A stretch of DNA of 64,000 nucleotides. Source: a virus. Numbering within the stretch: position 1 is the stretch's first letter; every line of letters begins with the position of its first letter. A model generated the notes under the pieces. That model worked only from the letters and a program-made list of their open reading frames with translations, was not told the origin of the DNA and did no database searches. The DNA lies in the IMG/VR virus record IMGVR_UViG_3300024289_000019, positions 48,302 through 112,301 of that record. One strand, written 5' to 3'. The translations under genes were made by a program, and so were the position numbers. Below are positions 5,795-43,007 of this stretch, piece by piece.

Positions 5795-6347
5795 TCTAGT
5801 AAAAACAAAAGCTCATAGAGTTTTAGGTATAGATGCCTCAACAAACTCTGTGGCTTTCTGTTTAATGGAAAATGATATTCCAATTAAGTGGGGAAAAATT
5901 GAATTTACTGGATCAGATATATATGAAAAAATATATGACGCAAAAATTAAAACCCATGCAATGCTTAATGAATTAAAGGCAGATTATATTGTTGTAGAGG
6001 GGGCAGTGTTTGTCAAATCCCCAGATGCTGTGATAAAATTGTCCTATGTATATGGTGTCATCATTGCTGAGCTTATGTCTACTGGGGCTAGTGTTATTAC
6101 TATATCTCCTACATCTTGGCAGGCTTATATTGGAAATAAAAACCCAACAAAGCTGGAGAAAGACAAACTTAGGTTTGAAAATCCAGGACATGCTGACTCT
6201 TGGTACAAAGCAAAAATGCGGGAGATCAGAAAGCAAAGGACTGTAGATTATTTTAATAAAAAGTATAACTTACAGTTAGACGATTTTGACGTAGCAGATG
6301 CATTCGGCATCGCTCATTATTCGAATACGGTGTTAACACAAAGATGA
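5778..6347 (+). CDS. RuvC-like resolvase
   Basis: VLGIDAST, IVVEG, DVADAFGIA. Confidence 0.85.
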   Translation: MMGLADLVKTKAHRVLGIDASTNSVAFCLMENDIPIKWGKIEFTGSDIYEKIYDAKIKTHAMLNELKADYIVVEGAVFVKSPDAVIKLSYVYGVIIAELMSTGASVITISPTSWQAYIGNKNPTKLEKDKLRFENPGHADSWYKAKMREIRKQRTVDYFNKKYNLQLDDFDVADAFGIAHYSNTVLTQR

Positions 6348-6490
6348 AATTGTATCAAAGCCAGACATGGTTATATAGAAGATATGTAGTTCAGAAAAAA
6401 ACTGTTACGGAAATTGCTGATGAGTGTAAAGTTTCAGCAATGACTATACAGAGATATTTAGAAAAATTTGGAATGATAAAGAGGAGATAG
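6344..6490 (+). CDS. small HTH DNA-binding protein (48 aa, not in ORF track)
   Basis: KTVTEIADECKVSAMTIQRYLEKFG. Confidence 0.7.
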   Translation: MKLYQSQTWLYRRYVVQKKTVTEIADECKVSAMTIQRYLEKFGMIKRR

Positions 6491-15424: not shown

Positions 15425-15655
15425 ATGATTGCTCAAGAAAACAAAGTAAACAAGTTAATTAAAAACTTTAAAACAGATTACCAAGAAGCATTTTGGGACG
15501 GGTATACACTTGTAGTGTGGAAACGTGATCCTTCTGGCTTTTCAAATAAACGTGGAATGTTTAGAAATGAAACTTGGGGCTTAACAACTAGATTTAATAT
15601 GACAGACGGCGGAGTTTGGGATTTGCCTGAGCGTTATGTCAAATATATTAAATGA
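15425..15655 (+). CDS. hypothetical protein
   Basis: ORF in operon with whiB. Confidence 0.7.
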   Translation: MIAQENKVNKLIKNFKTDYQEAFWDGYTLVVWKRDPSGFSNKRGMFRNETWGLTTRFNMTDGGVWDLPERYVKYIK

Positions 15656-15947
15656 TCTAGGCGTAGACTCAGATGATTTTGAATGGTGGCATCTAGCGGC
15701 TTGTAATGGAATGGAAACAAATTTATTTTATGATAAATATGAGTCTGATTTCAATATAGCCAAAAATATAGATGAGATGTGTTTGAGTTGTCCAGTTATA
15801 CAAGAATGTCTGATTGCTGGATATCAAAACAATGAATATGGTGTATGGGGTGGAATATACTTAAATTCTGGTTCAACAGATAAAGCACGTAATGTGCACA
15901 AAAAACCAGAAATATGGAAAAGATTAAAAGATAAACATGGACATTAA
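15636..15947 (+). CDS. whiB: WhiB-family Fe-S transcription factor
   Basis: W...AAC...C..CPV..EC...YGVWGG. Confidence 0.92.
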   Translation: MSNILNDLGVDSDDFEWWHLAACNGMETNLFYDKYESDFNIAKNIDEMCLSCPVIQECLIAGYQNNEYGVWGGIYLNSGSTDKARNVHKKPEIWKRLKDKHGH

Positions 15948-28433: not shown

Positions 28434-28648
28434 TATTTCTCCTTTGTTTCTTCCATTATATCAAGAGCCACTGACAAAATGTGGTCACAAGCAGATACCT
28501 GGCCACTCGTCCAATTGTATTCAATATCTAATTCAGCAAAGTCTTTTGAGGCGGGGTCCAAAGCATCCATCTGATTAGATAATTGCTCTAAATCCTGGTT
28601 TAAAGACATTATATGTAGTTTGATATATTCAATTAGTTTATGAGACAT
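28433..28648 (-). CDS. hypothetical protein
   Basis: GGAGG RBS. Confidence 0.65.
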   Translation of the reverse strand: MSHKLIEYIKLHIMSLNQDLEQLSNQMDALDPASKDFAELDIEYNWTSGQVSACDHILSVALDIMEETKEK

Positions 28649-28773
28649 GGCCTTCCTCCATTAATCCAATTAAAAAGTCGGCGGCTAACCAAACTTCTTC
28701 CTTATCCCTAGAATCAGGTAAAGATTCATGTACATTCAATAAACCCTCAACCATTTCTTCTACATCTTTTAAT

Positions 28774-29028
28774 TTATAACCCAACATTAAAATACTCCTC
28801 ATCTTCAGGTGTTAATTCATAGAATAGATTAAACTTAGATTGTAAATATGGGTCTGATGACATTAAAGCAATTTGATAATCTGCATAAAATGTCCCTTCA
28901 TCTAAATTAGAACTATTCCATTGTTCAAATAGATGTTCAGATATTTCAGTAATGACAGCGTCAATTACCATTTGATTCTCATCATCTAAAAATGACCCAC
29001 GGTCATTTAGTTCCAGCCTATCAGCCAT
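28774..29028 (-). CDS. hypothetical protein
   Basis: coupled acidic ORF. Confidence 0.65.
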   Translation of the reverse strand: MADRLELNDRGSFLDDENQMVIDAVITEISEHLFEQWNSSNLDEGTFYADYQIALMSSDPYLQSKFNLFYELTPEDEEYFNVGL

Positions 29029-29773
29029 TTACTTGCTCCATTCTATAATCAGGGACATGCTCGGAATCCAAGTATATCTTATGGGTCTGACATTCTTTGA
29101 CACAATCAAGGTCTGCCTCGCCTAAATAATTACAAGCAGAGCAAATTTGACCACAATCATTATCGCAATAATCTAATGTATCTTCTGCATCACAATCTCT
29201 ACATTTAGATTCATATTCAGAACCTTCTAATTGTTCACCACGAAGGAACTCGCATTCGCCACCCCAACCTGTCTCTTCTTCATAACTAAGAGTAAATAGG
29301 AGTGCTGGATATTGTGCTGATAATTTAGCAATGGCAGGAAACGGTGGAGACCAAGCAGTATTGAAATTATAATAAACTACAAGGTTCTCTCCATTTTCAG
29401 TAGGACCCTCCATATATGTTTCAGGATATTCATCATCTGAAGATACAGCGACATCCCATTTTGTGCCCCATTCACGAACATTGAATGAATACCAGTCATT
29501 TGTTTGGAATTTCATTTGCTCTTCAATAGGCAATTTATGGTCGGGTTGCTGAAGATACTCATACTCAGTAATACCTGCTTGTAAATGATTATAGATATTA
29601 TGAAAAGCAAATACAGGATTAGGATATGTAGTTTGTTTCTTTTGCATTTGTCCAGTTTCCATGTTCCATGAATCATGGACCTGTGCAAATGGCTTATTCA
29701 ATTGTGCTACTAATGTATTGACAAGTTGTGGATTTCCCTCTATGGTCAATCCGTTATATACCCAGTTCGGCAT
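29021..29773 (-). CDS. YubB/DUF1281-like ferredoxin-fold protein with Cys-rich tail
   Basis: MPNWVYN, WYSFNVREWGTKWD, FNTAWSPP. Confidence 0.75.
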   Translation of the reverse strand: MPNWVYNGLTIEGNPQLVNTLVAQLNKPFAQVHDSWNMETGQMQKKQTTYPNPVFAFHNIYNHLQAGITEYEYLQQPDHKLPIEEQMKFQTNDWYSFNVREWGTKWDVAVSSDDEYPETYMEGPTENGENLVVYYNFNTAWSPPFPAIAKLSAQYPALLFTLSYEEETGWGGECEFLRGEQLEGSEYESKCRDCDAEDTLDYCDNDCGQICSACNYLGEADLDCVKECQTHKIYLDSEHVPDYRMEQVNG

Positions 29774-29955
29774 ATATATTCCTTTCGTTCGGTTATTGGC
29801 ATAATTATAATGCCTACCACCGACATTTGTCTATATGATGTGGATCACATAAAATGACTAATAGGTTTATTTATCTTATATATTGAGAATTTCAGTGAAT
29901 ATAGTTGACAAACGTAAAAAGATCAATCTATCCTCCGCTTTTACGGGCAGCTATA

Positions 29956-30000
29956 AAAAAAGCGGGGGCCCCAACAGTCTCTCCCTCTGTTGGGCCCCCT
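29956..30000 (-). terminator. intrinsic terminator
   Basis: long GC-rich hairpin followed by T-tract on minus strand. Confidence 0.7.
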
Positions 30001-30087
30001 GTGTTTGGCTGCATCCACACTATGCATATTTAAAGACTGGGGCGAAAGGAACCCTGAAAGCCTCACCAAACGTTATTTATCATTATA

Positions 30088-30453
30088 TCATACTGAGGCA
30101 GGTTCAAGAGGTGGTACAGTTATACCAGCATGATAAGCGATAAACTCTTCCCATGAATGTCCTTCAACGGTTTTGCCAACCATATCAACATCCACGGTAA
30201 AATCCCAAGCAGCAAAATTGCTAGGTTTAGATACTGCGCCAATGCCATAACCAGTTTCGTCCAGGACCTCATGCTGAATCATATGACTAATAATCATACG
30301 AATGCAATATGGTGTGTCATTCCACCTTGGACGAGCATGTGCTAATGCTGTAGCAAGTTTAACTTGCCATTCATCTTCTCCCCAATGTGAATATAACCAA
30401 ACTGCAGGCTCATTTTCGCCTTCGTTAAAAATATAATTAATTCGTGCTCCCAC
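30088..30453 (-). CDS. hypothetical phage protein
   Basis: MGAR...LYSHWG motif. Confidence 0.7.
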   Translation of the reverse strand: MGARINYIFNEGENEPAVWLYSHWGEDEWQVKLATALAHARPRWNDTPYCIRMIISHMIQHEVLDETGYGIGAVSKPSNFAAWDFTVDVDMVGKTVEGHSWEEFIAYHAGITVPPLEPASV

Positions 30454-30643
30454 TGATTTCCGCCTTTTCTCTAGTGTCCTCTTCGATTTTGTCCAATTCT
30501 ACTACTTCATAGGACCATTTGTCAAGGCCCTCTTTGAACTCGTTGTAGTGGTGTCCACAGAAAAATAAATCTCCAGCTAAACCTTTAGCCTGATACATTG
30601 CTTTTGCTGTAACACATTTATCACAATTTAATCTTTCTGTCAT
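30437..30643 (-). CDS. small Zn-binding protein
   Basis: CDKC...LFFCGHH. Confidence 0.7.
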   Translation of the reverse strand: MTERLNCDKCVTAKAMYQAKGLAGDLFFCGHHYNEFKEGLDKWSYEVVELDKIEEDTREKAEISGSTN

Positions 30644-30788
30644 AGTTTTCCGCCTTCTATCATGTCTGATAATCTATCTAAGATCCAAGAGTCGATATCG
30701 TTGATGTCAATCTCACGTAATTTCTCCATGATTTCATCACGGGCATATTTGTAACCATCATCCCAACCGCTCTTATAATCTGACATAT

Positions 30789-31001
30789 TTATCTCCTTGT
30801 GTATCCAGTTTCTTCGTATTCTGATACATAAGTTTCTGTTAAATTAAACTTATCACGAATACGACTTACTTTCTCTATGCTACCAGTTCCAATGTTGAAT
30901 GTCAATGGTGGCATGAAATGTGGGTCCAGTCCAATTACTTGTGCCTCCCAATAGGCCATCTCTAAAGACAGCCTATCAGGAGCGGTAAGTTCAAAGTACA
31001 T
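30789..31001 (-). CDS. hypothetical protein
   Basis: coupled ORF. Confidence 0.65.
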   Translation of the reverse strand: MYFELTAPDRLSLEMAYWEAQVIGLDPHFMPPLTFNIGTGSIEKVSRIRDKFNLTETYVSEYEETGYTRR

Positions 31002-31651
31002 TACCAGCGCACATCCGCATCTTCAACATCAAATGATTGAACAACAACATCTCCGTTGTATGCATCAAGAGTTAAAGTATCTTGTAAGAAGTAACGTGCA
31101 TCAAAATCTTCTACGTCCTCCATTGGAATATCGTATTCAACCTCAAATGACATGCTTCCAGTAATACGAACTGTTTGCTTTGGTTCATGACCAAGAATTT
31201 CGCAAAGGTCTCTAAGGACATCTTCCTTTTCAACGTTTGGGTTGTACCAGCCATCAGTATCTAGATTATTAATAATACGACGTATTTGGTCGTTACTAAT
31301 AGTTAGTTGTTTTTCAAGGCGGACCAAGGAATCTAATTTACCTTCTAGGTCCACAGTCTTGATACTTGGGTAAGTTATATCATAACCATTAATAGACTTA
31401 TATGTTGTAAGTGCATTAGGGTTATAGGTCTCAGGGACCGTTGATGTTTCTTGCATTTCTTTCCTTTCGTTAATTGGTGTAATTGTAGCAGGCTCCACCG
31501 ACAAAAGGTTGGGCCTACGTCCACATGGACATGTGACATTCATCACACTTCCAGATGGGAATCCGAATTTATCTGATGATGTTACTTCAATTAAAGTATC
31601 ACATTCATCAGGATCGCATGCATATGTATTTTTAGTCCAGGTTTCTGACAT
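31001..31651 (-). CDS. hypothetical protein with internal promoter, RBS and second start at 31456
   Basis: N-terminal Zn ribbon in frame; AACGAAAGGAAAGAAATG inside the ORF. Confidence 0.65.
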   Translation of the reverse strand: MSETWTKNTYACDPDECDTLIEVTSSDKFGFPSGSVMNVTCPCGRRPNLLSVEPATITPINERKEMQETSTVPETYNPNALTTYKSINGYDITYPSIKTVDLEGKLDSLVRLEKQLTISNDQIRRIINNLDTDGWYNPNVEKEDVLRDLCEILGHEPKQTVRITGSMSFEVEYDIPMEDVEDFDARYFLQDTLTLDAYNGDVVVQSFDVEDADVRW

Positions 31652-31869
31652 TAGACATCCGCCATTTGCTTGTGGTATGCTTTGAGGTCCATAACATTAA
31701 TGTTAAGTTCCTCTTCAGGGTACTCATTAATCAAGAAGTTTAATGCTTCTCCTGCTGACTTAAAGTCAGTATAATTAGTTGAATAACCATATCCATATAT
31801 GGTTGCTTCCCAGCAGTCTACCCCTCCAGGAGAGACAGAATATTCCATTTCATATATCTGTGCGTTTAT
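31651..31869 (-). CDS. hypothetical protein (start approximate)
   Basis: start must lie downstream of the promoter at 31880-31903. Confidence 0.55.
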   Translation of the reverse strand: MNAQIYEMEYSVSPGGVDCWEATIYGYGYSTNYTDFKSAGEALNFLINEYPEEELNINVMDLKAYHKQMADV

Positions 31870-32021
31870 CATGGCCCAAATTATACACGAGACGACTGAC
31901 ATTTACAAGCATTTCCAGGGATTTTTTCTAGATTCCCGTATTATCTACATCACATCCGTAAAAGCTCTGGGCGATCCTTAGTATATTGCGGGCGTCTCAT
32001 TATGTGAAACATTTTATCTTG

Positions 32022-32096
32022 CGATGCGTACGGGATTTGAACCCGTGATCTCCACAGTGACAGTGTGGTGAAATAACCAAGCTATTCTAACGCACC
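32022..32096 (-). tRNA. tRNA-Asp(GTC)
   Basis: minus strand GGTGCGT/ACGCATC acceptor, arm CCACA-CTGTCAC-TGTGG, T loop TTCAAAT. Confidence 0.9.
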
Positions 32097-32141
32097 AAAT
32101 AAAAACGGGGGAGATTTATCTCCCCCGCTAGTTTATCATTC

Positions 32142-33146
32142 TTAGAATGATTTTACTAACTTGAGAAGTTTATTTTTCTCAGCAGTAAGAATTGGGTCAA
32201 AGCCACTCGCACCCGCCATTAGCGTTTCAGAATTGCCACGACCAGAACGGAAATAATCAAGGCGTTCAGTAAGCGCATTGAAAGCACCCCATTTTGTTCC
32301 CTTGATATTAGCGTTAGTTGGTGAGTTATGATAAAGTTCATCAATCAAGATAACTTTATTTTCCCACTTTTTCAAAGCACCCTTAGCGTCTTTTTCAGGC
32401 TTAGGATAAATTGTGCGAATTAGTTTAGAGAATTCGGCATCAGTAATTTCCTGCTTGAAAAGTTCCTGCGCTTCTTTCTCGAATTCATCAAAGTATCCAA
32501 GAGCAAGACCCAAAGTTTCACGAGCAACTTGAATTCTGCCTTCGACAGATTGAGTATGGCGAATTTTGAATGATTGCTTAGCATTACGCATAGCAAGATT
32601 CAAAGTGTTTTGGCATACAACACGAACAGGTGTAATTGCTGCCTGAACAGCAACAGAACCATCATGTGAAGTCCATACGATTAGATAAAGTTTTGTTTGG
32701 TCATTAGCACCTTGTGGGTCTAACACCATAGTTCTAGGAACATCAACAGTTCCGAAAACTACTTTACCATTTTTGAGAGAACCAGCAGATTCCCAGCGAC
32801 ACTCAGGGTTAGCATCATGAATGTTATCTGCGAAAGCAAATAATTCTTCATTCTGAACAGGCTTGTATCGCTTACCAACAGTAGCGAGAACATCAGTTCC
32901 ACCATTGAATGGATTTGTGCGAATAACTAACTGAGCGTTAGATACATCATTCCAAGATTCTGAAATGTGGTCGGTCAATGGAGATAAGCGAACATTCCAA
33001 TTAGAAAGTTTTGCTTCATCGAGCATTGTTTGAGTAGTTACATTTTCATCTTGATTGAAAATGCGATTAGCGAGATTGTGCCATGCGGGTTTTCCACGCA
33101 AAGCAAAGGCAACTTCGTTGCCATTTGTTTCTAGGTTATGAGCCAT
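32142..33146 (-). CDS. DUF932 family (phage/plasmid-like) protein
   Basis: MAH..., PAWH, Y.PVQNEE.F, SHDGS, TPVRVVCQNTL, GTKWGAFNALTE. Confidence 0.88.
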   Translation of the reverse strand: MAHNLETNGNEVAFALRGKPAWHNLANRIFNQDENVTTQTMLDEAKLSNWNVRLSPLTDHISESWNDVSNAQLVIRTNPFNGGTDVLATVGKRYKPVQNEELFAFADNIHDANPECRWESAGSLKNGKVVFGTVDVPRTMVLDPQGANDQTKLYLIVWTSHDGSVAVQAAITPVRVVCQNTLNLAMRNAKQSFKIRHTQSVEGRIQVARETLGLALGYFDEFEKEAQELFKQEITDAEFSKLIRTIYPKPEKDAKGALKKWENKVILIDELYHNSPTNANIKGTKWGAFNALTERLDYFRSGRGNSETLMAGASGFDPILTAEKNKLLKLVKSF

Positions 33147-33385
33147 AGATTTTTCCTTTCATTAGTTAGATTGAGCCTAAGTATAACAGACCCCACCGAC
33201 ATTGTAAATAGTTAGATAGACATTGTGGGCAAATCGGACATGTGATCAATATCATAAATTCCTGTGGTTATCCACAGTTTGCCGTAACGCTGTGGATAAC
33301 CCCGCAAGTTGTTGCGGGCCACAAGATCGGGGAAGCTGGGGCGGGAATCTAGATGATTACACAGTTCAAACCCGCCCCAAGATTA

Positions 33386-33568
33386 TTACTTACCGACTTT
33401 TACCATAGCATAACGCAAACCGCTGCCAGTATCTAATCTTAATTTAGTTAGATTAGGTCTGATAGAAATTATTTCGCTAATAGTGCCAGTAATTCCTGAT
33501 TTACCAGTTGTAAAAACATCGCCTTTGCGATAGAAGCGACCTTTCTTGGTATCTAGAATTGGTGACAT
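33386..33568 (-). CDS. small beta-barrel-like protein, paralogue of 34140-34319
   Basis: Y.kGD.FTT.KS..TG.I.EI shared. Confidence 0.7.
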   Translation of the reverse strand: MSPILDTKKGRFYRKGDVFTTGKSGITGTISEIISIRPNLTKLRLDTGSGLRYAMVKVGK

Positions 33569-33633
33569 TTTATTTCCTTTCGTTTGTTGGTTGGTGAGTA
33601 GTTTATAGTCATACTCAGGACTTTGTTCGTTAT

Positions 33634-34056
33634 TTATAGATAACGAGCAATAGCGTTGTAAGTAGAAGTAGAAACTACTTCCTCATCGGTCATCTTGAGA
33701 ATACGAATAGCGTTCTCAATCTCCTCTACCATTTCGTTATACTGCCAATCGTGGAAAGTCTGAAAGTCTTTCTTTGGTTCAGCAGGTAGTTCAATAGCAT
33801 TAGCAGGAAGGTAGAAATCTACATTTATCCTTCCGTCATAACGCTTGTTAGCAGACAAGTTTTCTGCCTTAGAGATAGCAGTTAGAGCAAGTTTAGCGAC
33901 TTCCTTGTTCCACTTCTCTTGGGCTTTCTCAAACTTAGCCTCGTTAGTTGCTTGGTTCTCTCTATCCTTTTGGAGTTGAGCGAGTTTTGTTTCTAAGGCT
34001 TTGATAACCTTAGTTGTAGCGATTTTTACATTTATCGCTTTTCCGTTTCTTGCCAT
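33634..34056 (-). CDS. hypothetical protein
   Basis: CGAAAGGA RBS, own promoter. Confidence 0.75.
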   Translation of the reverse strand: MARNGKAINVKIATTKVIKALETKLAQLQKDRENQATNEAKFEKAQEKWNKEVAKLALTAISKAENLSANKRYDGRINVDFYLPANAIELPAEPKKDFQTFHDWQYNEMVEEIENAIRILKMTDEEVVSTSTYNAIARYL

Positions 34057-34139
34057 TTATTTATTTTCCTTTCGTTGTTTGTTTGGGAGTTTATTATAGC
34101 AGGGACTACCGACATTTTCGGTAATCCCTGCTTGTCTAT

Positions 34140-34319
34140 TTAGTTAGATAGACTTTCCGCTGAGATGGTTGTCCAGCGAGTTTCTTTTGTTGGTAGTTCC
34201 AACAAAACACGCACCGAGCCAGATGCGTTAGGCACAATCTCTTTGATTACGCCTGTTTTCTTTGACTTTAGGGTGGTGAATAAATCGCCAACCTTGTAAG
34301 TATAACCATTTATGGTCAT
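34140..34319 (-). CDS. small beta-barrel-like protein (59 aa, not in ORF track)
   Basis: MTINGYTYKVGDLFTTLKSKKTGVIKEI...; GAAAGGA RBS. Confidence 0.7.
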   Translation of the reverse strand: MTINGYTYKVGDLFTTLKSKKTGVIKEIVPNASGSVRVLLELPTKETRWTTISAESLSN

Positions 34320-34397
34320 TTTGCTTCCTTTCTGTTAGTAGTTGGGTTGTATTTTAGCATACCCCACCGACAATCGGCAAGGTATAGCGGTGTGAGA

Positions 34398-34664
34398 TTA
34401 GTCACACCAAGCCTCTAGGTGGTGCTGTTCGATAATAGCCCATGCGGGTGCGGTATCTCTGCCTTTATAGGATACGCCTTCGGGCATTGGTATCTCACGA
34501 TCAGTTTCGCCCTCATCATAAGCAAAAATAGCCTCAATACAAGGTTCTACCATGCTAGTAGGAACGGGCGGGTAATGATTAGCAGTTAGATGAATTGAGA
34601 TAGCAGTAGATAAATCTAATCCTAAATCATAGTCAGCTAAATCGTGTGCGAAATTACTTCCCAT
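34398..34664 (-). CDS. hypothetical phage protein
   Basis: HLTANHYPPVP...IIEQHHLEAW. Confidence 0.75.
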   Translation of the reverse strand: MGSNFAHDLADYDLGLDLSTAISIHLTANHYPPVPTSMVEPCIEAIFAYDEGETDREIPMPEGVSYKGRDTAPAWAIIEQHHLEAWCD

Positions 34665-34935
34665 TATTTTCCTCCAATACTGAGTTTTTCATTTGTTCCA
34701 TTTCGTCAATAGTTTCGATTAGTTCCCTGAATTGTGTTTCAGTTAGTAATACTTTAGTAATTTTATCAGTTGTAGCAGAAGCAATAGCAGTAGCATACAT
34801 AAACATAGCCCTAGCGAATTGTTCTTGGTCTAAGTCATGGCGAGAATGGACAATAAAAGAAGCGAGTTCCATTTGTTCATCGCCAATAATTCCCTCTTGA
34901 GTAGCCTCAAGTAGAGCAGAAGCAGTAGATAACAT
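34654..34935 (-). CDS. hypothetical protein
   Basis: CGAAAGGA RBS, own promoter. Confidence 0.7.
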   Translation of the reverse strand: MLSTASALLEATQEGIIGDEQMELASFIVHSRHDLDQEQFARAMFMYATAIASATTDKITKVLLTETQFRELIETIDEMEQMKNSVLEENNGK

Positions 34936-34990
34936 TTATTTCCTTTCGTTGTGGTAGTGGGCTAGATTATACACTAGCCCACCGACATTA

Positions 34991-35245
34991 TTAGGCTAGG
35001 GCTAAGATAGCCTGAGAAGCACCGTCATTTACACGGGCGAGTTCTGCCTCTAACTCATTACGAGTAAATTTGGCAGGATTACCGATAAGTTCTGATACCA
35101 TGCGAGAATTTTCCTCAACAAAGATACCTGCGGGCAGGCGCTTTACTGCTGAATAGAAAGAGCCTTGTGGGTCAAGCATAGAAACAAATTCTACGCCTGC
35201 AACGGAGAATGGGTACTTTACCCAGTTAGTTGTATCTAAAGACAT
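34991..35245 (-). CDS. hypothetical protein
   Basis: CGAAAGGA RBS, own promoter. Confidence 0.7.
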   Translation of the reverse strand: MSLDTTNWVKYPFSVAGVEFVSMLDPQGSFYSAVKRLPAGIFVEENSRMVSELIGNPAKFTRNELEAELARVNDGASQAILALA

Positions 35246-35504
35246 TTATTTTCCTTTCGTTTGTCGTTAGACTAGGAATTATACACGAAGCCTGCGACAT
35301 TTTACATTTGAGTATCGGCGTGTCGGGCATTTGTGAGATTTCTCACAAAATCCCGTGATTATCCACAGGCCCACTTAAACATGTGGAAAACCCCGCACAT
35401 ACTGCGGGCCTTTTATATTTTAAAAAATAAATATAAAAATAAAAGTAACGGAGAAATTAAAAAACCGATAAAGATCAACGTTGTCAGAGCTGCAAAAAAT
35501 TCTA

Positions 35505-36227
35505 TCATTTTTTACTCGCAGAAAATCTAACATCCGCTTTACCGTACACACATAAGCCGCATGATACGCATGCGCTGCCATTGGTGGAGATAAGTGGAAT
35601 TTGTTTATTATTTTCAGGACATTTTGCACCAGGCTTACCAATTAATTCTTTCATAGTATTTTCGGTGACTGCAAAAGTTTTACCTAGATACGCTAATTTA
35701 ATTCCAGAATTATTTTTGCGTAAGTCATGAGCAATTTCTTTATTCTCATCATCGGTAGAAAAATAAAGAGAGAGGTTAGAAATATCCTTAAGGATAAGCG
35801 CTGCAGACTTTACACGAGTATATACCCAAAATTGCACATCGGGATTATTTTGGATAACCGCTTTCCACGCATATGCATAGGTATCATTAAAGAAATCGCC
35901 ATCCCAGTGTATACGGAATAACTTTTCTGCATTACGCTTTTCACAATCTGCAACAAAATCAGCAATCATATCGCTAAGCAATAGAGACATGGTATCCATA
36001 TCTGCATTGCGTAGCAATTCCCAGTTATGCAGAAGAGTATTCTTTACTCCTTTGTATACTCTTTCAAGTTTTCCTGCATAGCAAACGCTTTCACAAACAC
36101 TAGTGGCACCAGGACACGAGAAATCTTTTCCAGCAGGTAATCCAAAAGTGTTAGCGATTGTTGGGGTTTTTCCATTTTTTGAGACAGCATTAGCGACCTT
36201 CCTATCATTAGACCTTTTTAGTTTCAT
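35505..36227 (-). CDS. Gp88-like (radical-SAM-related) protein
   Basis: FGLPAG..SCPGATSVCESVCYA, FRIHWDGDFF, FWVYTR, CVSCGLC. Confidence 0.75.
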   Translation of the reverse strand: MKLKRSNDRKVANAVSKNGKTPTIANTFGLPAGKDFSCPGATSVCESVCYAGKLERVYKGVKNTLLHNWELLRNADMDTMSLLLSDMIADFVADCEKRNAEKLFRIHWDGDFFNDTYAYAWKAVIQNNPDVQFWVYTRVKSAALILKDISNLSLYFSTDDENKEIAHDLRKNNSGIKLAYLGKTFAVTENTMKELIGKPGAKCPENNKQIPLISTNGSACVSCGLCVYGKADVRFSASKK

Positions 36228-36275
36228 TATACACCTTTCGTTATGGGCCCTATTGTAGCAGGGCCCACCGACATT

Positions 36276-36773
36276 TTACCAAGAGGACTGATAGTAGTAG
36301 GATAAATCCTTATACTCATCATTTTCTACTAGTGGGGCTATCTGCTTGATAGTGTCCTTGATATCAGACCAATAGTATTCATCGATATCATATGAGCCGA
36401 AAAAGAAACCAGCAGACGGCATTAGTTCGCTAGGGTCTTTCTTGAATAAGGCTTGACGGCAGGTAGTAAGTAATTCTTTTAGTTTATCACGAGATACATA
36501 GTATTCACCGCAATTATCTTCACCGCCTTGTACATTATCGACAAACCATTTGTGTATCTGATTAGCCTTACGCCAATACGCCACATTTACGCTAACATCT
36601 ACGCCATAGATACTTTCAGTATCTACAAGAGTATCAACACCAGCAGCATTTACTACATCATTCCATTGTGGATAAGTTGCAGCAGAGTATTTAGTGTCTA
36701 AATCTCTATCTAATTTAGACCAGTCAATTTTAGCAATATGCTTACGAGCAGAGAGGTACATATCTAAACCCAT
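36276..36773 (-). CDS. conserved phage hypothetical protein
   Basis: MGLDMYL...YWRKANQIHKWF...GFFFGS...YQSSW. Confidence 0.8.
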   Translation of the reverse strand: MGLDMYLSARKHIAKIDWSKLDRDLDTKYSAATYPQWNDVVNAAGVDTLVDTESIYGVDVSVNVAYWRKANQIHKWFVDNVQGGEDNCGEYYVSRDKLKELLTTCRQALFKKDPSELMPSAGFFFGSYDIDEYYWSDIKDTIKQIAPLVENDEYKDLSYYYQSSW

Positions 36774-36924
36774 TATTTTATTCCTTTCGTTAGGTTAGGC
36801 TGCTATTATAGCGGAAGCCACCGACAAATTCCACGACACGCCGAAAAAATTCCTGTGAAAAAAATCACATCTACTTAACGACACGCCCGACCCCGCAAGA
36901 TCTGCGGGCTTGTTGAAATTTCAA

Positions 36925-37071
36925 CTAATCCCAATTAGTTTTCAAACCAGCTGCGGTTTTTTTATGTTTTGTTTTTCTTGAATAAATTTTTTTAGATTTT
37001 ATTGGCGTTGCGGCATTTGACCTCCGCAATTCCAAAATTCTTTTTATTCTTTCTTTATTTGGTAATTTCAT
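36925..37071 (-). CDS. very basic 48-aa peptide (not in ORF track)
   Basis: ELRRSNAATPIKSKKIYSRKTKHKK; ATGA coupling. Confidence 0.6.
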   Translation of the reverse strand: MKLPNKERIKRILELRRSNAATPIKSKKIYSRKTKHKKTAAGLKTNWD

Positions 37072-37259
37072 TTTGTTCCTAACTTTGGTAATTTGTAATT
37101 TGAAGCGTCATAGAATTTATTTGCGTCAAATCTTGGATTATCTTTCGCAAACATTTCCGCAAAATCTATAACCATTTTTGAAAAAACGGCTGGGTGAGTT
37201 TTATCGCTAACATAGTTTAGAATTTTAGCGGTTTCAACATAGTGTTTTTTAGATGTCAT
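37068..37259 (-). CDS. hypothetical protein
   Basis: DNPRFD..KF motif; coupled. Confidence 0.7.
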   Translation of the reverse strand: MTSKKHYVETAKILNYVSDKTHPAVFSKMVIDFAEMFAKDNPRFDANKFYDASNYKLPKLGTK

Positions 37260-37462
37260 TTTTCCACGACCCTTCTGCCTTCACGATAAAAGATTTTGGT
37301 ATAGCATTTTCCGCTAGGTGTGTAGAGATTTACAGTTGAGTAATCCATAGCAAATCCCCAATCCACATAACTAGCAAAACTCTTGTGAGCCTCTAGTTCA
37401 TCAGCGATTTGTTGTGTGAAGTGTGGAGAATTTTCATCATAAGCAACAGTTATTTTATACAT
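37256..37462 (-). CDS. hypothetical protein
   Basis: coupled ORF. Confidence 0.65.
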   Translation of the reverse strand: MYKITVAYDENSPHFTQQIADELEAHKSFASYVDWGFAMDYSTVNLYTPSGKCYTKIFYREGRRVVEK

Positions 37463-37683
37463 TAGTTAGCCTCCTGAGTAGCAAAAATTGAAAGTTCATT
37501 TTCGGAAAGCAATCCGTTATCCCAAATCACATCTCCGTCATTATCTAAAATAAGTTCATAGGGATTACACTCGCAAGTTTCATAGTCAAAATAATCCTCG
37601 CCATTTCCCCAATAAATAGCACCCATACCACGACAGGCATCACAATTTTTTATTGCTCTTAGAGCAGTTTCAAGTTTATCCAT
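37462..37683 (-). CDS. Zn-binding hypothetical protein
   Basis: CDACRG...CECNP. Confidence 0.65.
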   Translation of the reverse strand: MDKLETALRAIKNCDACRGMGAIYWGNGEDYFDYETCECNPYELILDNDGDVIWDNGLLSENELSIFATQEAN

Positions 37684-37843
37684 TTTCTTTTTCCTTTCTT
37701 TCTTGAATTGTAGCAGTTAGCACCGACAACGCTTCCGCCTTAGAGGCTTCACGCTGGGCGTTGATAAAGTTTCTGAATTCGATCAAATCCATTTTAGTTT
37801 TCCTTTCGTTTATTGGTTAGATTATAGCGGAAGCCACCGACAT

Positions 37844-38056
37844 TTAGTCGGGAAGCCTAACCGCAACAGTAGCCCACTCATCTTTGAGCGAACCCGTAGG
37901 GCGGTAGCGAATTGAATAGGCTTCGTAGCCCTCAGATAAATAGACATCATCTCGCTTTTCCGCAAAGTTGATAATTCCGCCATTGTATCTCCTACGCATA
38001 GAAGTAGGCGCATAGTATTGGTCAATTAGTAAATCAACAATAGAATATGAACGCAT
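37844..38056 (-). CDS. hypothetical protein, paralogue of 39709-39903
   Basis: YSI.(D/N)LL...AEK...EAY...VAV shared. Confidence 0.7.
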   Translation of the reverse strand: MRSYSIVDLLIDQYYAPTSMRRRYNGGIINFAEKRDDVYLSEGYEAYSIRYRPTGSLKDEWATVAVRLPD

Positions 38057-38580
38057 TATCCTAGTATCCTTTCTCCATAGTAATTCTCAAAATCAGCAAT
38101 AGTCATCAGACCTTTATACTCATTACAAAATCCGCAGAATTTAGTATCCGCAGAGTATTCAGTTTCGCAGAAGCAACAAATTAGTTTCATTTAGTTATCC
38201 TTTCTAACTTTCTTGGCGAAAGTTTATCAGAAAGCACCGACATTTTCAAATCCAAATCGTAATTTCTCAAATAGTAAGACGGCGTGTCGTGTGATAAAAA
38301 TCACAAATTTTTTTTGTGATAAATCTCACAAAATTCCCGTGATTTTTAAAATTGGACATAAAAGACAAATCGCCCCCACACTACGTACGGGCGTGATCGA
38401 GCTTTGTCAAGACGACACGCCGCTTAGGCGGTGTGAGTTGCCTCACATTCCGCAGAGCATTCGGCGGGAAGGCTAAAGAGATACTTTAGCAGAGCCTTAC
38501 GCTCAGACATAGATATTTCAGGGTGATATTGTTTTACACCACCATGTTGATATTCAAAGATGATTTTATCTAAAGTTTTT

Positions 38581-38787
38581 TTAGTTAGCATTTACTTTAT
38601 TCCTTTCTAAATCTTTATGTGCGTAGTAGCAACGCATTTCGTGAAGTCTAATCCACTTTGAGATTTGAAATCTTGAACAGATGTAGCATTTATGCCACTT
38701 TTGTTTTAGCCAAATTTTATTGTTATCTGAATTGTATAAATCCAACATTGTGTGTTGTTTTTCGCATTTACATTTTTTGTTAGTCAT
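38581..38787 (-). CDS. Cys/His-rich hypothetical protein
   Basis: GAAAGG RBS, promoter at 38824-38845. Confidence 0.55.
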   Translation of the reverse strand: MTNKKCKCEKQHTMLDLYNSDNNKIWLKQKWHKCYICSRFQISKWIRLHEMRCYYAHKDLERNKVNAN

Positions 38788-39276
38788 TTTCTAAACCAAC
38801 CTTTCTAACTTTCTAATAACTGAAGTCTAGCAGGGGGGTCTGACATTCTACTGACCAGTATGCGTACAAATCGGACATTTCGTTTTGTGATTTACACCAC
38901 ATTTTCCAGGCATTTAGACAAAACGGACATAAGGGTACAAAACGCCCGCAAAAGACTGCGGGCAGCTGCCGATTTTGTCAAATCGACACGCCGCTTTTAT
39001 TTTATTTTTTTATTTCTTTTGTTGCCAATCTGATCGTGTAAATTACGCTAAGAATTAGCGCAATTTGAACAGCGGAAGTTAGAAGTCTATTCATTAGAAC
39101 ATTTCACCGCTTTCTAGTAGAGCATCAAACTCAGCATCAATTTCTTTTTCTAGCAGAACATCAAGAGAGATTTCATCTGCCTCATCATCAAAGTATTCAT
39201 TTACTACATAACTATCTTGAATACTTTCATATTTATATTCACTAGGGTTTCTTTCCCAACTCATAGCATACATTAT

Positions 39277-39426
39277 TTATTTTCCTTTCTTATTGCGGTA
39301 AATCTTATACGCTACCACCGACAAAATAACTAGACCTAGACCTAGCCAAGAAGCGTAGAAATCAAATTGAGCGGTCTCAAAGGCAATTCCATCTGACCCT
39401 AATTCTATTAGTAAGTATCTATCCAT
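39277..39426 (-). CDS. 49-aa membrane peptide (not in ORF track)
   Basis: AGGAG RBS; hydrophobic WLGLGLVILSVVAY. Confidence 0.55.
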   Translation of the reverse strand: MDRYLLIELGSDGIAFETAQFDFYASWLGLGLVILSVVAYKIYRNKKGK

Positions 39427-39708
39427 TTTAGTTATTCTCCTTTATACATTCGCAAGTTTCTACATCATAGTCTAAGTCATTACCCCAAAAGATAAGACCT
39501 ACGCCATTACATTCATCACATTCAATTCTAGTTAGAGAGTTTATCATTTATTTATTTCCTTTCGTTAGTGTGATAGTAGGTCTTATTTGCTAGGCTCACC
39601 TTTCGGATTATTTGCTAGGCTCATACCTACTATTCAATTTTGTTATGTCGTTAGACTATCAGACCTGACCGACATTTTCAAGCCGACACGCCGAAGCGTG
39701 GGTGTGAC

Positions 39709-39903
39709 TTATGCCACACTTACCGCTACTGAGCGGTAGGTATAACCTCCGCCATTCTTACGGATTTCTACAAGATACGCCTCAGCGTTTTCATACCATA
39801 CACAAGACGGATGTTTTTCAGCCGATACGATTTCGCCCTCAACGGAGCGGGAACGATAAGTTTTACCTACTAGGAGGTTTTCGATAGAGTATAGATTAGC
39901 CAT
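39709..39903 (-). CDS. hypothetical protein, paralogue of 37844-38056
   Basis: GAAAGGAG RBS. Confidence 0.7.
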   Translation of the reverse strand: MANLYSIENLLVGKTYRSRSVEGEIVSAEKHPSCVWYENAEAYLVEIRKNGGGYTYRSVAVSVA

Positions 39904-40620
39904 TATGGTAATCTCCTTTCATTAAGTTAATCGGTATTATTTCAGATTTATTAAGTTTTTTCAAGTCGACACGCCGTTAAGAGAGTGTGATTTGTATCAC
40001 TTGTGGATACAATCACTTTCAATCTCATGACCGAATTCATCTACTAATTCTTCATAGATTTCATCTAGATAATCAAGATAATCAGACATTATTTCTCCTT
40101 TCATTATGTATAGAATACTAACATAGACCACCGACATTTTGACCCGTTTTTCGGGCGTGTCGCAAAACTATTTTTGTGAGATACCTCACATTATGGGCGC
40201 ACTATCTATTTTTAAAAAATTTTAAAATAACGTGTATCATACAAATTAAAAATATATTAACATTTTAGAAAAATGAAATTACTAGTTGACTAAAATAATA
40301 TTAGCATGATAAGATTTATCCAATGTCAGCTAATAGAGTATATATCTGCGATAAATGCGGAGCGGAAATCCAAGTAAGATCTAATTTTGTGTTAAAAACA
40401 CACTACAATCACATCAGGGAATGTAAAGCTCAATAAAAGCGAAAATCCCTTCGGAGGCGGATCCTAGGGGATTTTCTAATGTAAGGGAGAATGGTGGTTC
40501 TCAACCAAACACTTCTATAATAATAACATATGTGTAATTTGTAGTCAACTAGGAAGAGTATCTGCTATATCAACTGCATCATCTATAGTACGTGGATGCT
40601 CTGATGTGCAATCTCCACAA

Positions 40621-40842
40621 TTACGACACATGCATCTCCTCTGGCCATTTATTTAATGGACAACTAGCATTTAATAGTTGTGTCTTTAATGGCATAATGC
40701 ACAAACATTCTTTACATTGTTTTGTTGGTTTAAAAAATTCGGGGCAGGAAGAACAAGTCTCCATTCTTCTCTCTTGCACATGTTTAGGAGCTCTAGGAGA
40801 ATTTGGATCTAATAAATCCCATGGTCTAACTTCTCTTGCCAT
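40621..40842 (-). CDS. Cys-rich small protein
   Basis: CSSC..CKEC.C....CPLNKW. Confidence 0.7.
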   Translation of the reverse strand: MAREVRPWDLLDPNSPRAPKHVQERRMETCSSCPEFFKPTKQCKECLCIMPLKTQLLNASCPLNKWPEEMHVS

Positions 40843-41016
40843 TTAGAATTCCCCAATTGGACAAGAGAAATCTATATCTGAATAATACTCCGAACTGTGC
40901 TTGTCTACCATAGTACATTTTAATTCTAGTTGACTAAATTCTAGACAAGATTGACAAGTTTTAGAACGAAATTCAGCTAGTAAGGTTTTCTGTAATTGTG
41001 GGTTCAGATTGTCCAT
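40843..41016 (-). CDS. Cys-rich small protein (57 aa, not in ORF track)
   Basis: CQSC...C...CPIGEF, similar spacing to 40621-40842. Confidence 0.55.
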   Translation of the reverse strand: MDNLNPQLQKTLLAEFRSKTCQSCLEFSQLELKCTMVDKHSSEYYSDIDFSCPIGEF

Positions 41017-41245
41017 TGTCTTCCTTCGGTTTAAATGCTGGCATTGGGCCTAGGATATGACCTTGTTCGTGCAAGTTGACTACATTCTGAATTAGTTCAG
41101 GCTTCTCTGTCATATGTGATGTCAAAATTGACAATAGGTCATAAATTCTGGCCAACATGATATATTGTGCCATTTGTAAATTATCTTCTAAATTGACGTT
41201 TTCTTCGCTCATTTTCGTAATACTTTCTAAGATGTCCTCTAGCAT
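40973..41245 (-). CDS. hypothetical protein
   Basis: YIMLARIYD...HEQG..LGP.P. Confidence 0.65.
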   Translation of the reverse strand: MLEDILESITKMSEENVNLEDNLQMAQYIMLARIYDLLSILTSHMTEKPELIQNVVNLHEQGHILGPMPAFKPKEDNGQSEPTITENLTS

Positions 41246-41354
41246 ATTTTCTAGAGTTTAAATGTTTTCGTATTTTAGTATAGCATATAAAGTTGACTCT
41301 TTCTAGTCCGCCGAGCACTTTTTTACTCACTATGCGGCTAAAAAAATTTTCATA

Positions 41355-41621
41355 TTATTTTTCAAGTATAAATATGGCTAATGTACAACCAGTATCGCCA
41401 AATGCATAAATTTTATCTTCTGGCCCAAGATCAACTTTAAAAAATTCTAAAGGTTCAAGTTTAACTCCATAGTTAGTTGGAGAAACATTTCCGTTTCCAA
41501 GATAAGCATGCTTTGAGTTGTCTACATTTTGGATGGATATAAAATTTGGACCATCTATAGCATCGTCAATAGTAAGTTCTACTGGTGTTGCAGACATGGA
41601 TACAAGTTTTGTTCTTAACAT
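41355..41621 (-). CDS. hypothetical beta-rich protein
   Basis: IQN...YLG...YG.KL; TGATATAAT directly upstream. Confidence 0.65.
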   Translation of the reverse strand: MLRTKLVSMSATPVELTIDDAIDGPNFISIQNVDNSKHAYLGNGNVSPTNYGVKLEPLEFFKVDLGPEDKIYAFGDTGCTLAIFILEK

Positions 41622-41628
41622 ATGTCTA

Positions 41629-41898
41629 TTATATCACTTTTTCTTCTGGCGCCGAAGCACTTTCAATTATTTCGTGTAGCAAAATAGCTGTATTACTGGC
41701 AATTACAGAATTATCTACATTCAGTCTTATCCAAGGACCGTAGGAATCCATTCTGGTAGATCCCTGGTATACCTGACCAGTTTCTTGGTCAATCAATATC
41801 CATTTTTCTGGAACTCTAGTTCTCACTAAAAGATTAATTGGAGTTTGTAAAGGGGTAAGACTTGTCCCGTCCTTCAATTTTCTTTTTGATGTTTTCAT
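41629..41898 (-). CDS. hypothetical protein, tandem paralogue
   Basis: RKL..G...P.KWILID.ETGQ.Y.G shared with 41834-42148. Confidence 0.7.
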   Translation of the reverse strand: MKTSKRKLKDGTSLTPLQTPINLLVRTRVPEKWILIDQETGQVYQGSTRMDSYGPWIRLNVDNSVIASNTAILLHEIIESASAPEEKVI

Positions 41899-42148
41899 CT
41901 TTAGTAACTTCTTTCAATATCTCAACAATATCTTGTGGTACATCAAAGTAAACGTTTTGAAGTTTCCATTCATGACATCTACGTACATTTAATCCTCTTG
42001 GACGAATTTCATCACAGCCACGATAAATTTGTCCTGTTTCAGAATCTATTAAAATCCACTTAGTAGGAGATTTTGTCTCTACCATCAATTGTACTTTATC
42101 AGATAGTTCTTCTGATGTTTTACCATTAACTAATTTTCTGTCCGCCAT
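41834..42148 (-). CDS. hypothetical protein, tandem paralogue
   Basis: KWILIDSETGQIYRG. Confidence 0.7.
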   Translation of the reverse strand: MADRKLVNGKTSEELSDKVQLMVETKSPTKWILIDSETGQIYRGCDEIRPRGLNVRRCHEWKLQNVYFDVPQDIVEILKEVTKDENIKKKIEGRDKSYPFTNSN

Positions 42149-42332
42149 GTTTTTCTATGTATTTTCCTATCTTTTCGTAAAGATCTAATCCAACATAATT
42201 TTTATATGAGCACGACAAACAATATAAAAATAGTTTGTCGTCATCTGTTAAATTTGGATACAGTTGCAGCTGATCCATTGGGCAAATCAGCGGAGGAACT
42301 TTTTGCTCCTCCGCTAACTTTTGATATGCCAC
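42126..42332 (-). CDS. Zn-ribbon hypothetical protein
   Basis: CPMD...CLSCSY. Confidence 0.65.
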   Translation of the reverse strand: MAYQKLAEEQKVPPLICPMDQLQLYPNLTDDDKLFLYCLSCSYKNYVGLDLYEKIGKYIEKHGGQKIS

Positions 42333-42345
42333 GACTAATTGTGTT

Positions 42346-42924
42346 TTAATTTACTGCCTCTATCTTGTTTTGTTTTGTTATTTTTAAACACGATTCAGGA
42401 AATTCATTTAAGAACTTCTTATATCTAACAGTTTGGTAGCTAGGCCAAGAACTCCAGTCTTTGCCACCTTTTGTCATTCTATATGCTATTTCAGCGTTTA
42501 AAATAGGGTTTAATAGGTTCGAATTGGAAGTGAGCCCATATTGGTCTCTTCTTTCAACTCCAAGGTTGCCAAGCATGTTAACTTGAAAAATCCCATATGA
42601 GTTGTCCCCTGTTTTTCTGTTTCCGTTATAAGCAAGCGGTCTTCCGTTGGACTCTGTTTTTGACACAGCCCACGCTTTTTTTAGAGCTTGACCTTCAAAG
42701 CCAGCAATGCTTAAAACATCTACTAGTTCGCAGTCACTTAAATCTGTTGCTACAGAATAAGCTTCTACTTTTTGCGCCAATAGTTCAGCAGATTTTTTCT
42801 GTTCAACCATTAAAGCGTACGCAGGTCCGTCTGTATTTGCTATTAAATATACCGCTACCATAAGTAGAACGAATATGGTAGAATTACTAAATAACTCGTA
42901 CAAACGTTTTATATTTTTCTCCAT
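42346..42924 (-). CDS. membrane-anchored lytic transglycosylase (SLT/lysozyme-like)
   Basis: N-terminal TM; ESNG catalytic Glu, SYGIFQVN, WSSW; TTGACA-N18-TAAAAT promoter. Confidence 0.85.
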   Translation of the reverse strand: MEKNIKRLYELFSNSTIFVLLMVAVYLIANTDGPAYALMVEQKKSAELLAQKVEAYSVATDLSDCELVDVLSIAGFEGQALKKAWAVSKTESNGRPLAYNGNRKTGDNSYGIFQVNMLGNLGVERRDQYGLTSNSNLLNPILNAEIAYRMTKGGKDWSSWPSYQTVRYKKFLNEFPESCLKITKQNKIEAVN

Positions 42925-43007
42925 AGGTGTTACCTCCTAAGAGACAGTAAATATAATTTTACTAAACAATGTAAGGTGTTGTCAAGCTAGTCAACCAGAA
43001 AGTTTTT

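Follow-up and report, generated by a model that had tools for sequence, protein, structure and literature searches.

A one-strand array of putative PafBC-type promoters in the small-gene island of an uncultured actinophage

The island and its predicted promoters

The window analyzed here is a stretch of 64,000 nucleotides (nt), bases 48302-112301 of the 112,301-bp IMG/VR virus record IMGVR_UViG_3300024289_000019, for which CheckV gives a completeness of 100%. It has a guanine plus cytosine (GC) content of about 36% and comes from an uncultured phage that encodes a DnaE-type polymerase, a terminase, tail and virion proteins, a ribonucleotide reductase and six tRNAs. Our subject is a block of small genes on the minus strand, the island, in which the motif TGTCRG-N10-TAnnnT recurs in front of open reading frames (ORFs). 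The motif resembles the promoters activated by PafBC, a heterodimer of WYL-domain proteins and the principal regulator of the DNA-damage response in Actinobacteria, mycobacteria included. The island, its predicted promoters, its recognizable genes and the block upstream of it are as follows.

28455..40136, minus strand: island of about 45 small ORFs with the whole promoter array; the only recognizable products are DUF932, GP88/PF17338 and DUF1281_C-like
40115..40136, minus strand: promoter 1 (TGTCGGTGG...TAGTAT), the array's first, with a CGACACGCC box and a CRP-like palindrome upstream
39653..39674, minus strand: promoter 2, also with TTGAAA at the -35 position
39302..39323, minus strand: promoter 3, 5' of the 59-aa ORF 39273..39094
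38824..38845, minus strand: promoter 4, TGTCAGACC subclass
38221..38242, minus strand: promoter 5, also with TTGAAA at the -35 position
37821..37842, minus strand: promoter 6 (TATAAT)
37707..37728, minus strand: promoter 7, within the short ORF 37792..37676
36805..36826, minus strand: promoter 8 (TATAAT), 5' of a 165-aa ORF
36252..36273, minus strand: promoter 9, 5' of the GP88-family gene, its -10 flanked by a 7-bp inverted repeat
35278..35299, minus strand: promoter 10, the one-mismatch variant TGTCGC (35291 in the original prediction)
34966..34987, minus strand: promoter 11 (TATAAT)
34351..34372, minus strand: promoter 12
34093..34114, minus strand: promoter 13, 5' of a 140-aa ORF
33180..33201, minus strand: promoter 14, 5' of the DUF932 gene
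31880..31901, minus strand: promoter 15 (TGTCAGTCG), without a clear ribosome-binding site or ORF directly 3'
31482..31503, minus strand: promoter 16, 5' of a 151-aa ORF
29804..29825, minus strand: promoter 17, 5' of the DUF1281_C-like gene
29071..29092, minus strand: exact but weak match inside ORF 29773..29021, a chance match or an internal promoter
28455..28476, minus strand: promoter 19, the array's last
32142-33146, minus strand: DUF932 gene, island product
35505-36227, minus strand: GP88/PF17338 gene, island product
29021-29773, minus strand: DUF1281_C-like gene, island product
40621..42985, minus strand: motif-free block of 8 ORFs, including one for an SLT-lysozyme-like protein, upstream of the island

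The motif TGTCRG-N10-TAnnnT has 18 exact matches in the window compared to 1.04 expected from shuffles (shuffle maximum 3). All 18 are on the minus strand and within 28455-40136, and the whole genome holds only 2 further matches outside, both weak and without the extended consensus. The spacer is fixed: N10 gives 18 sites in the window, N9 and N11 give none, and of 21 TGTCRG words on the coding strand of the island 18 have TAnnnT at exactly 10 nt. The motif, its restriction to one strand and to the island, and the 10-nt spacer had been claimed in an original prediction made from the sequence, and the counts bear this out. The coordinates given with it (each being the upper coordinate of a site minus 8) need some correction. 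Seventeen of the 18 are exact sites, but the one at 35291 is the TGTCGC variant, which brings the total to 18 exact sites plus one variant, and the list was not complete as it did not hold the weak intragenic match at 29071-29092. About 16 sites stand 40-55 nt 5' of an ATG carrying a (C)GAAAGGA ribosome-binding site, in agreement with the claim that most copies precede one. The island shows no enrichment for general sigma-70-type -35/-10 sites (65 vs 57.9 expected), and the phage promoters inspected lacked a LexA box (TCGAAC-N4-GTTCGA). The motif-free block (ORFs 42924 to 40621) is headed by a canonical TTGACA-18-TAAAAT promoter at 42956-42985. Judging from the sequence pattern, we take the repeats to be real promoters, about 17 of them in a 12-kb block of small genes.

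The published in vivo PafBC motif is tGTCgg(N10)tA(N3)T, with a canonical -10 and no -35 element, and the helix-turn-helix of PafB reads the -23 to -28 region (PMC8635444); PafBC is activated by single-stranded DNA bound to its WYL domains (PMC11804915). In the phage the box tGTCRG(tg) occupies -28 to -23 and is centered at -26, the SigA-type TAnnnT -10 follows after exactly 10 nt, and there is no -35 consensus, the exceptions being the two TTGAAA sites here and TTGACA sites in contig G066, which is described below. The predicted agreement of motif and geometry with the PafBC (RecA-NDp) promoters therefore holds, at the level of sequence, when set against the published motif (PMC8635444). Promoters of this class, also called recA P1-type (PMC8635444, PMC11804915, PMC6789036), share with the phage sites the frequent 'TG' after the hexamer as well, and the candidate host order uses the motif at recA. 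The phage sites differ in forming a one-strand array of about 17-25 before small genes, in the strength of their -10, and in being free of overlapping LexA boxes. By rough estimate, the probability that an 11-bit box matches by chance in one exact register is about 1 in 10,000 to 1 in 1,000, several candidate motifs having been allowed for. Since this is so improbable, we hold that PafBC, or a protein of PafB specificity, would bind the phage sites.

Conservation, phage host and the motif in candidate hosts

Relatives were gathered by means of the island DUF932 protein, which matched 277 IMG/VR contigs, so that this single gene is enough to show a phage group common in lake and river metagenomes. 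Motif counts were taken from the best 80 loci, where the gene strand holds 1148 copies and the opposite strand 6. Drawn from 787 distinct sites, the logo is WWW-TGTC(A>G)G-T-S-S-N4-(T)G-N-TAtAAT. Position -14 is G in 76% of these sites and position -15 is T in 62%, which gives the TGn extension of the -10; positions -36 to -31 carry no information, that is, there is no -35 consensus. In a leave-one-out test in the relatives every TGTCRG position was at least 98% invariant, position 5 being A or G. At promoter 14, TGTC and the -10 are fixed in 35 distinct orthologous DUF932 upstream regions and the spacer varies. The sites of five relatives that are 96-100% complete are confined to one single-strand island of 10-12 kb, and in more distant relatives, whose shared genes are 40-60% identical at the amino-acid level, 25 sites fall within 15 kb. 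Between relatives the gene content of the island differs and the promoters stay.

The motif is also found on an unrelated backbone. Contig G066 (62 kb, 44% GC) has other terminase, portal and capsid families and almost no genes in common with this phage, and it carries eight sites, all on one strand. An 88-aa island protein (window 34398-34664) is 52% identical to a homologue encoded in the motif-bearing part of this contig (G066:21625-21843), which suggests that island cargo is exchanged between phage backbones. No cultured phage matched the island in a megablast search.

The host of the phage can be approached through its own genes, in particular the following one.

15636..15947, plus strand: WhiB-like gene, a marker of an actinobacterial host

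The terminase is about 62% identical to that of Streptomyces cluster BE phages (Stanwilliamsviridae) and the WhiB about 50% identical. The nearest relatives of both proteins belong to phages of Streptomyces, Rhodococcus and Mycobacterium, and the WhiB matches among cultured phages are actinophages without exception. Because of the WhiB gene and this kinship, we take the host to be an actinobacterium. A cyanophage host, first prompted by a structural-protein match, was dropped after the WhiB and terminase results. The low GC, together with the presence of the island in river metatranscriptome runs, points to a low-GC aquatic lineage, and the host probably belongs to the Nanopelagicales (acI), an assignment made only from the low GC, the freshwater or river origin and the WhiB. 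Such hosts rank with the most abundant bacteria of fresh water. Searching for the host with the phage WhiB gave nothing in a genome scan, and the protein search returned phage orthologues only.

The prediction that candidate hosts encode pafBC holds for the Nanopelagicaceae. Among five of their genomes, retrieved with an acI 16S probe sequence, all five have two adjacent WYL genes in tandem. The pair of Ca. Planktophila versatilis matches PafB (E 6e-34) and PafC (E 9e-27) of M. smegmatis over the full length, as expected of orthologues, and the segment ERMFERDK, taken by position to hold two DNA-reading arginines, is nearly unchanged in it. TGTCRGTG-N8-TAnnnT occurs in 59 of 61 Nanopelagicales genomes, with about 247 matches vs about 45 for a reversed control. 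In three acI genomes recA is preceded by TGTCAGTG-N8-TAnnnT, and directly 3' of the -10 comes the LexA box TCGAACAGATGTTCGG (L173 in G001, L165 in G004 and L309 in G010), which would place both DNA-damage controls on one promoter. The motif also stands 5' of a LysM gene and a DUF6504 gene, both with SOS boxes, and of carD. On account of this enrichment and of the position at recA and at the SOS-box genes, we read the box as a working DNA-damage promoter of the Nanopelagicales.

A stretch of about 25-45 kb in Nanopelagicales genomes also carries 5-8 PafBC-type promoters (G010:C1:443341-467143, with like clusters in G007, G009, G026 and G005). The genes behind these promoters, several of them with leaderless starts, encode TPR proteins, a trypsin-like peptidase, a C-5 DNA methylase and an OGG-like glycosylase. 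PafBC may thus control a variable or defense region in these bacteria.

Candidate readers of the promoters

The explanation we favor is that host RNA polymerase with its housekeeping SigA would read the phage promoters through the TAtAAT -10, usually extended by TGn, and that the TGTCRG '-26 element' (-28 to -23) would stand in for a -35 element. In PafBC promoters the WYL heterodimer sits between the DNA and sigma domain 4, an arrangement called sigma adaptation. Host PafBC would thus bind the roughly 17 sites and switch on or boost the small accessory genes once single-stranded DNA appears in the infected cell. The host protein is the likely binder because the phage encodes no recognizable PafBC-like protein or sigma factor. 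The original prediction had stated this absence for the window; no WYL, sigma70_r2 or r4_2 match was found in the whole phage genome, which extends it. There was also no HTH_11 match above the cut-off, and no clear helix-turn-helix regulator was found in the phage genome, where no search was aimed at the MotA or AsiA families. The sole helix-turn-helix signal, which is sub-threshold, comes from one small ORF.

6344-6490: 48-aa helix-turn-helix ORF between a RuvC-like gene and the small terminase subunit, the only regulator-like signal besides WhiB

From the comparison with known promoters we lean, with modest confidence, toward phage promoters that depend on host PafBC or are boosted by it. 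The sites may also be active unaided with PafBC adding only a boost, or act as decoys.

Several observations weigh against a dependence on host PafBC. The -10 elements of the phage are near-consensus and carry TGn, and those of the host are weak; TATAAT is found at 8 of the 18 phage sites vs 1 of the 150 listed Nanopelagicales host sites. With such an extended -10 the phage promoters may fire without PafBC. A -35 element could be at hand in some cases, given the TTGAAA at promoters 2 and 5 and the TTGACA hexamer, a usable -35, that adjoins several of the G066 sites. The TGTCAGACC subclass lacks the 'GTG' that RecA-NDp has after the hexamer. G066 is itself not fully independent evidence, since the gene common to both islands allows for transfer of a cassette. 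The Streptomyces cluster BE relatives BillNye and Francob have 0 sites with either pattern, so the array would not have been inherited from that backbone. The Nanopelagicales are a candidate host order. Lastly, most ORFs of the island and of the block upstream have no informative family match, and a small phage protein of an unrecognized family could read the box instead.

Some of these points lead to other explanations. The promoters could be constitutive extended -10 SigA promoters, with TGTCRG serving either as an operator by which a phage or host repressor shuts the island, or as a PafBC decoy that blunts the damage or defense response of the host. The near-consensus TGn -10 would suffice for transcription without a -35, and operators are commonly located between the -35 and the -10. 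The 17-25 sites per genome are multiplied by replication, and titrating PafBC could pay, as PafBC-type promoters of the host precede the variable region with its TPR proteins, protease and DNA methylase. However, an operator does not need to copy the sequence of a host activator site along with its exact 10-nt register, and no candidate repressor was found in the phage genome. The decoy form of the idea still needs PafBC to bind and to this extent overlaps with the explanation that we favor. We regard constitutive promoters with an operator or decoy as unlikely. It is also conceivable that a phage factor of an unrecognized family, either a small DNA-binding protein or a sigma adaptor based on WhiB, mimics PafB and reads TGTCRG, in which case the island would be a phage-autonomous middle class like that of T4 MotA/AsiA. 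WhiB proteins bind sigma domain 4 and the phage has a WhiB gene; there is also the 48-aa helix-turn-helix ORF, and most ORFs of the island and of the block with the canonical promoter are without a family match. The absence of the motif from cultured relatives on another host genus would fit as well. But these motif-free relatives have WhiB too, the genome shows no WYL, above-threshold HTH_11 or sigma domain, and the box is identical to that of the host and recurs on the unrelated backbone of G066. A phage-made reader therefore seems to us quite unlikely.

We find it very hard to believe that the repeat is merely a conserved joint of mobile gene cassettes, kept as recombination homology, with the likeness to PafBC promoters being a coincidence. 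Contigs from RNA libraries of related strains do join or diverge at the promoter and ribosome-binding-site repeats (with short flanks), and the island varies in gene content between relatives with the promoters staying. Yet the conservation is limited to the hexamer and the -10 and leaves the 10-nt spacer free, which is the footprint of a bound protein, and coincidence would have to reckon with the rough chance estimate given above for a match in the exact register (about 1 in 10,000 to 1 in 1,000).

Binding by PafBC, a dependence on damage or single-stranded DNA and the timing of expression are all inferred here from sequence. 'Early' timing of the island is suggested by analogy with the small-gene blocks of other phages. 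Should single-stranded DNA be required, the genes could come on after DNA processing or replication has begun instead of upon injection. Of the sampled words of 31000-40400, 49-61% are present in four river metatranscriptome runs, in contigs that speak neither for nor against the PafBC explanation. These RNA-library contigs cover the island and its flanks alike and cross some of the promoters, and contigs of this kind cannot show where transcripts start or end.

Several known systems can be compared to the array. The middle promoters of T4 (MotA box and -10, 'sigma appropriation') likewise use the housekeeping sigma and a normal -10, with a non-canonical box in place of the -35. T4 however supplies both the activator and the co-activator, of which none is recognizable in this phage, and its box is at -30, whereas the box of this phage is the host DNA-damage box at -26. 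The host-takeover module of SPO1 and the early promoter cassettes of T4 (PeSL) resemble the island in being compact blocks of small genes of variable content with a strong promoter for nearly every gene. They differ from it in having canonical -35/-10 early promoters without a host activator box. Phage and prophage genes wired to LexA and SOS have the same tie to host DNA-damage signaling, but there it is relief of a repressor, mostly in temperate phages, and here, in what appears to be a lytic phage, it would be an activator responsive to single-stranded DNA.

PafBC-type promoters were claimed not to be known in a phage, and our reading of the literature agrees, as no paper on such promoters in a phage genome was found. 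What the literature does cover are WYL regulators of defense systems and the part of pafBC in mycobacteriophage resistance. WYL regulators are now being tied to phage defense. A wider, tentative possibility is that abundant lytic phages of freshwater actinobacteria wire an exchangeable accessory island, possibly for counter-defense, to the PafBC alarm of the host, which would also drive a defense-like region of the host. Phage and host would then compete over a single damage-sensing switch. If PafBC does read the array, this would be the first phage known to use sigma adaptation by a host WYL regulator, and a new way to time phage genes, through the single-stranded-DNA alarm of the host rather than through a factor made by the phage. 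It would also provide hundreds of naturally occurring promoter variants on which sigma adaptation could be studied.

Further elements and cargo of the island

A WhiA-type reading of the promoter box itself was considered and rejected, as TGTC is preceded by A or T and hardly ever by G, and the box is therefore not GTGTC. The island does have nine separate GGCGTGTCG / CGACACGCC boxes, at 35325, 36842, 36887, 38289, 38421, 38992, 39692, 39975 and 40162 (read on the minus strand), that contain the WhiA-type word GACAC, and several of these stand 15-50 nt 5' of a PafBC-type box. The same box is found in G066 (L303/L304) 5' of three composite promoters, about 45-50 nt before the PafBC-type box. There are also eight perfect TGTGA-N6-TCACA palindromes, the CRP/GlxR consensus, at 31547, 34406, 35347, 36869, 38305, 38330, 38447 and 40190. 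They are intergenic in the island and mostly 5' of promoters.

At three promoters (36252-36290, 34966-35004 and 29804-29840) inverted repeats of 5-8 bp put the -10 in a loop. Such a hairpin was rejected as a feature of the family, since the mean stem over 693 sites was 1.92 vs 1.91 for permuted arms. The RNA-library contigs mentioned above join or diverge at the promoter or ribosome-binding-site repeats at 34041-34316, 34044-36805, 37741-39574 and 34347, a weak hint that recombination at such repeats adds and removes gene cassettes.

A tRNA-Asp on the minus strand lies inside the island (in the 32021-32129 region) and adjoins a strong hairpin at 32104-32129 that resembles a bidirectional terminator. 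Two of the small island proteins (37462-37683 and 39428-39547) have in common a CxxC...CxC pattern like that of a zinc ribbon (...C(D)xC.G.G.I.WGN..DY...ETCEC...), from which we take them to be paralogous cargo.

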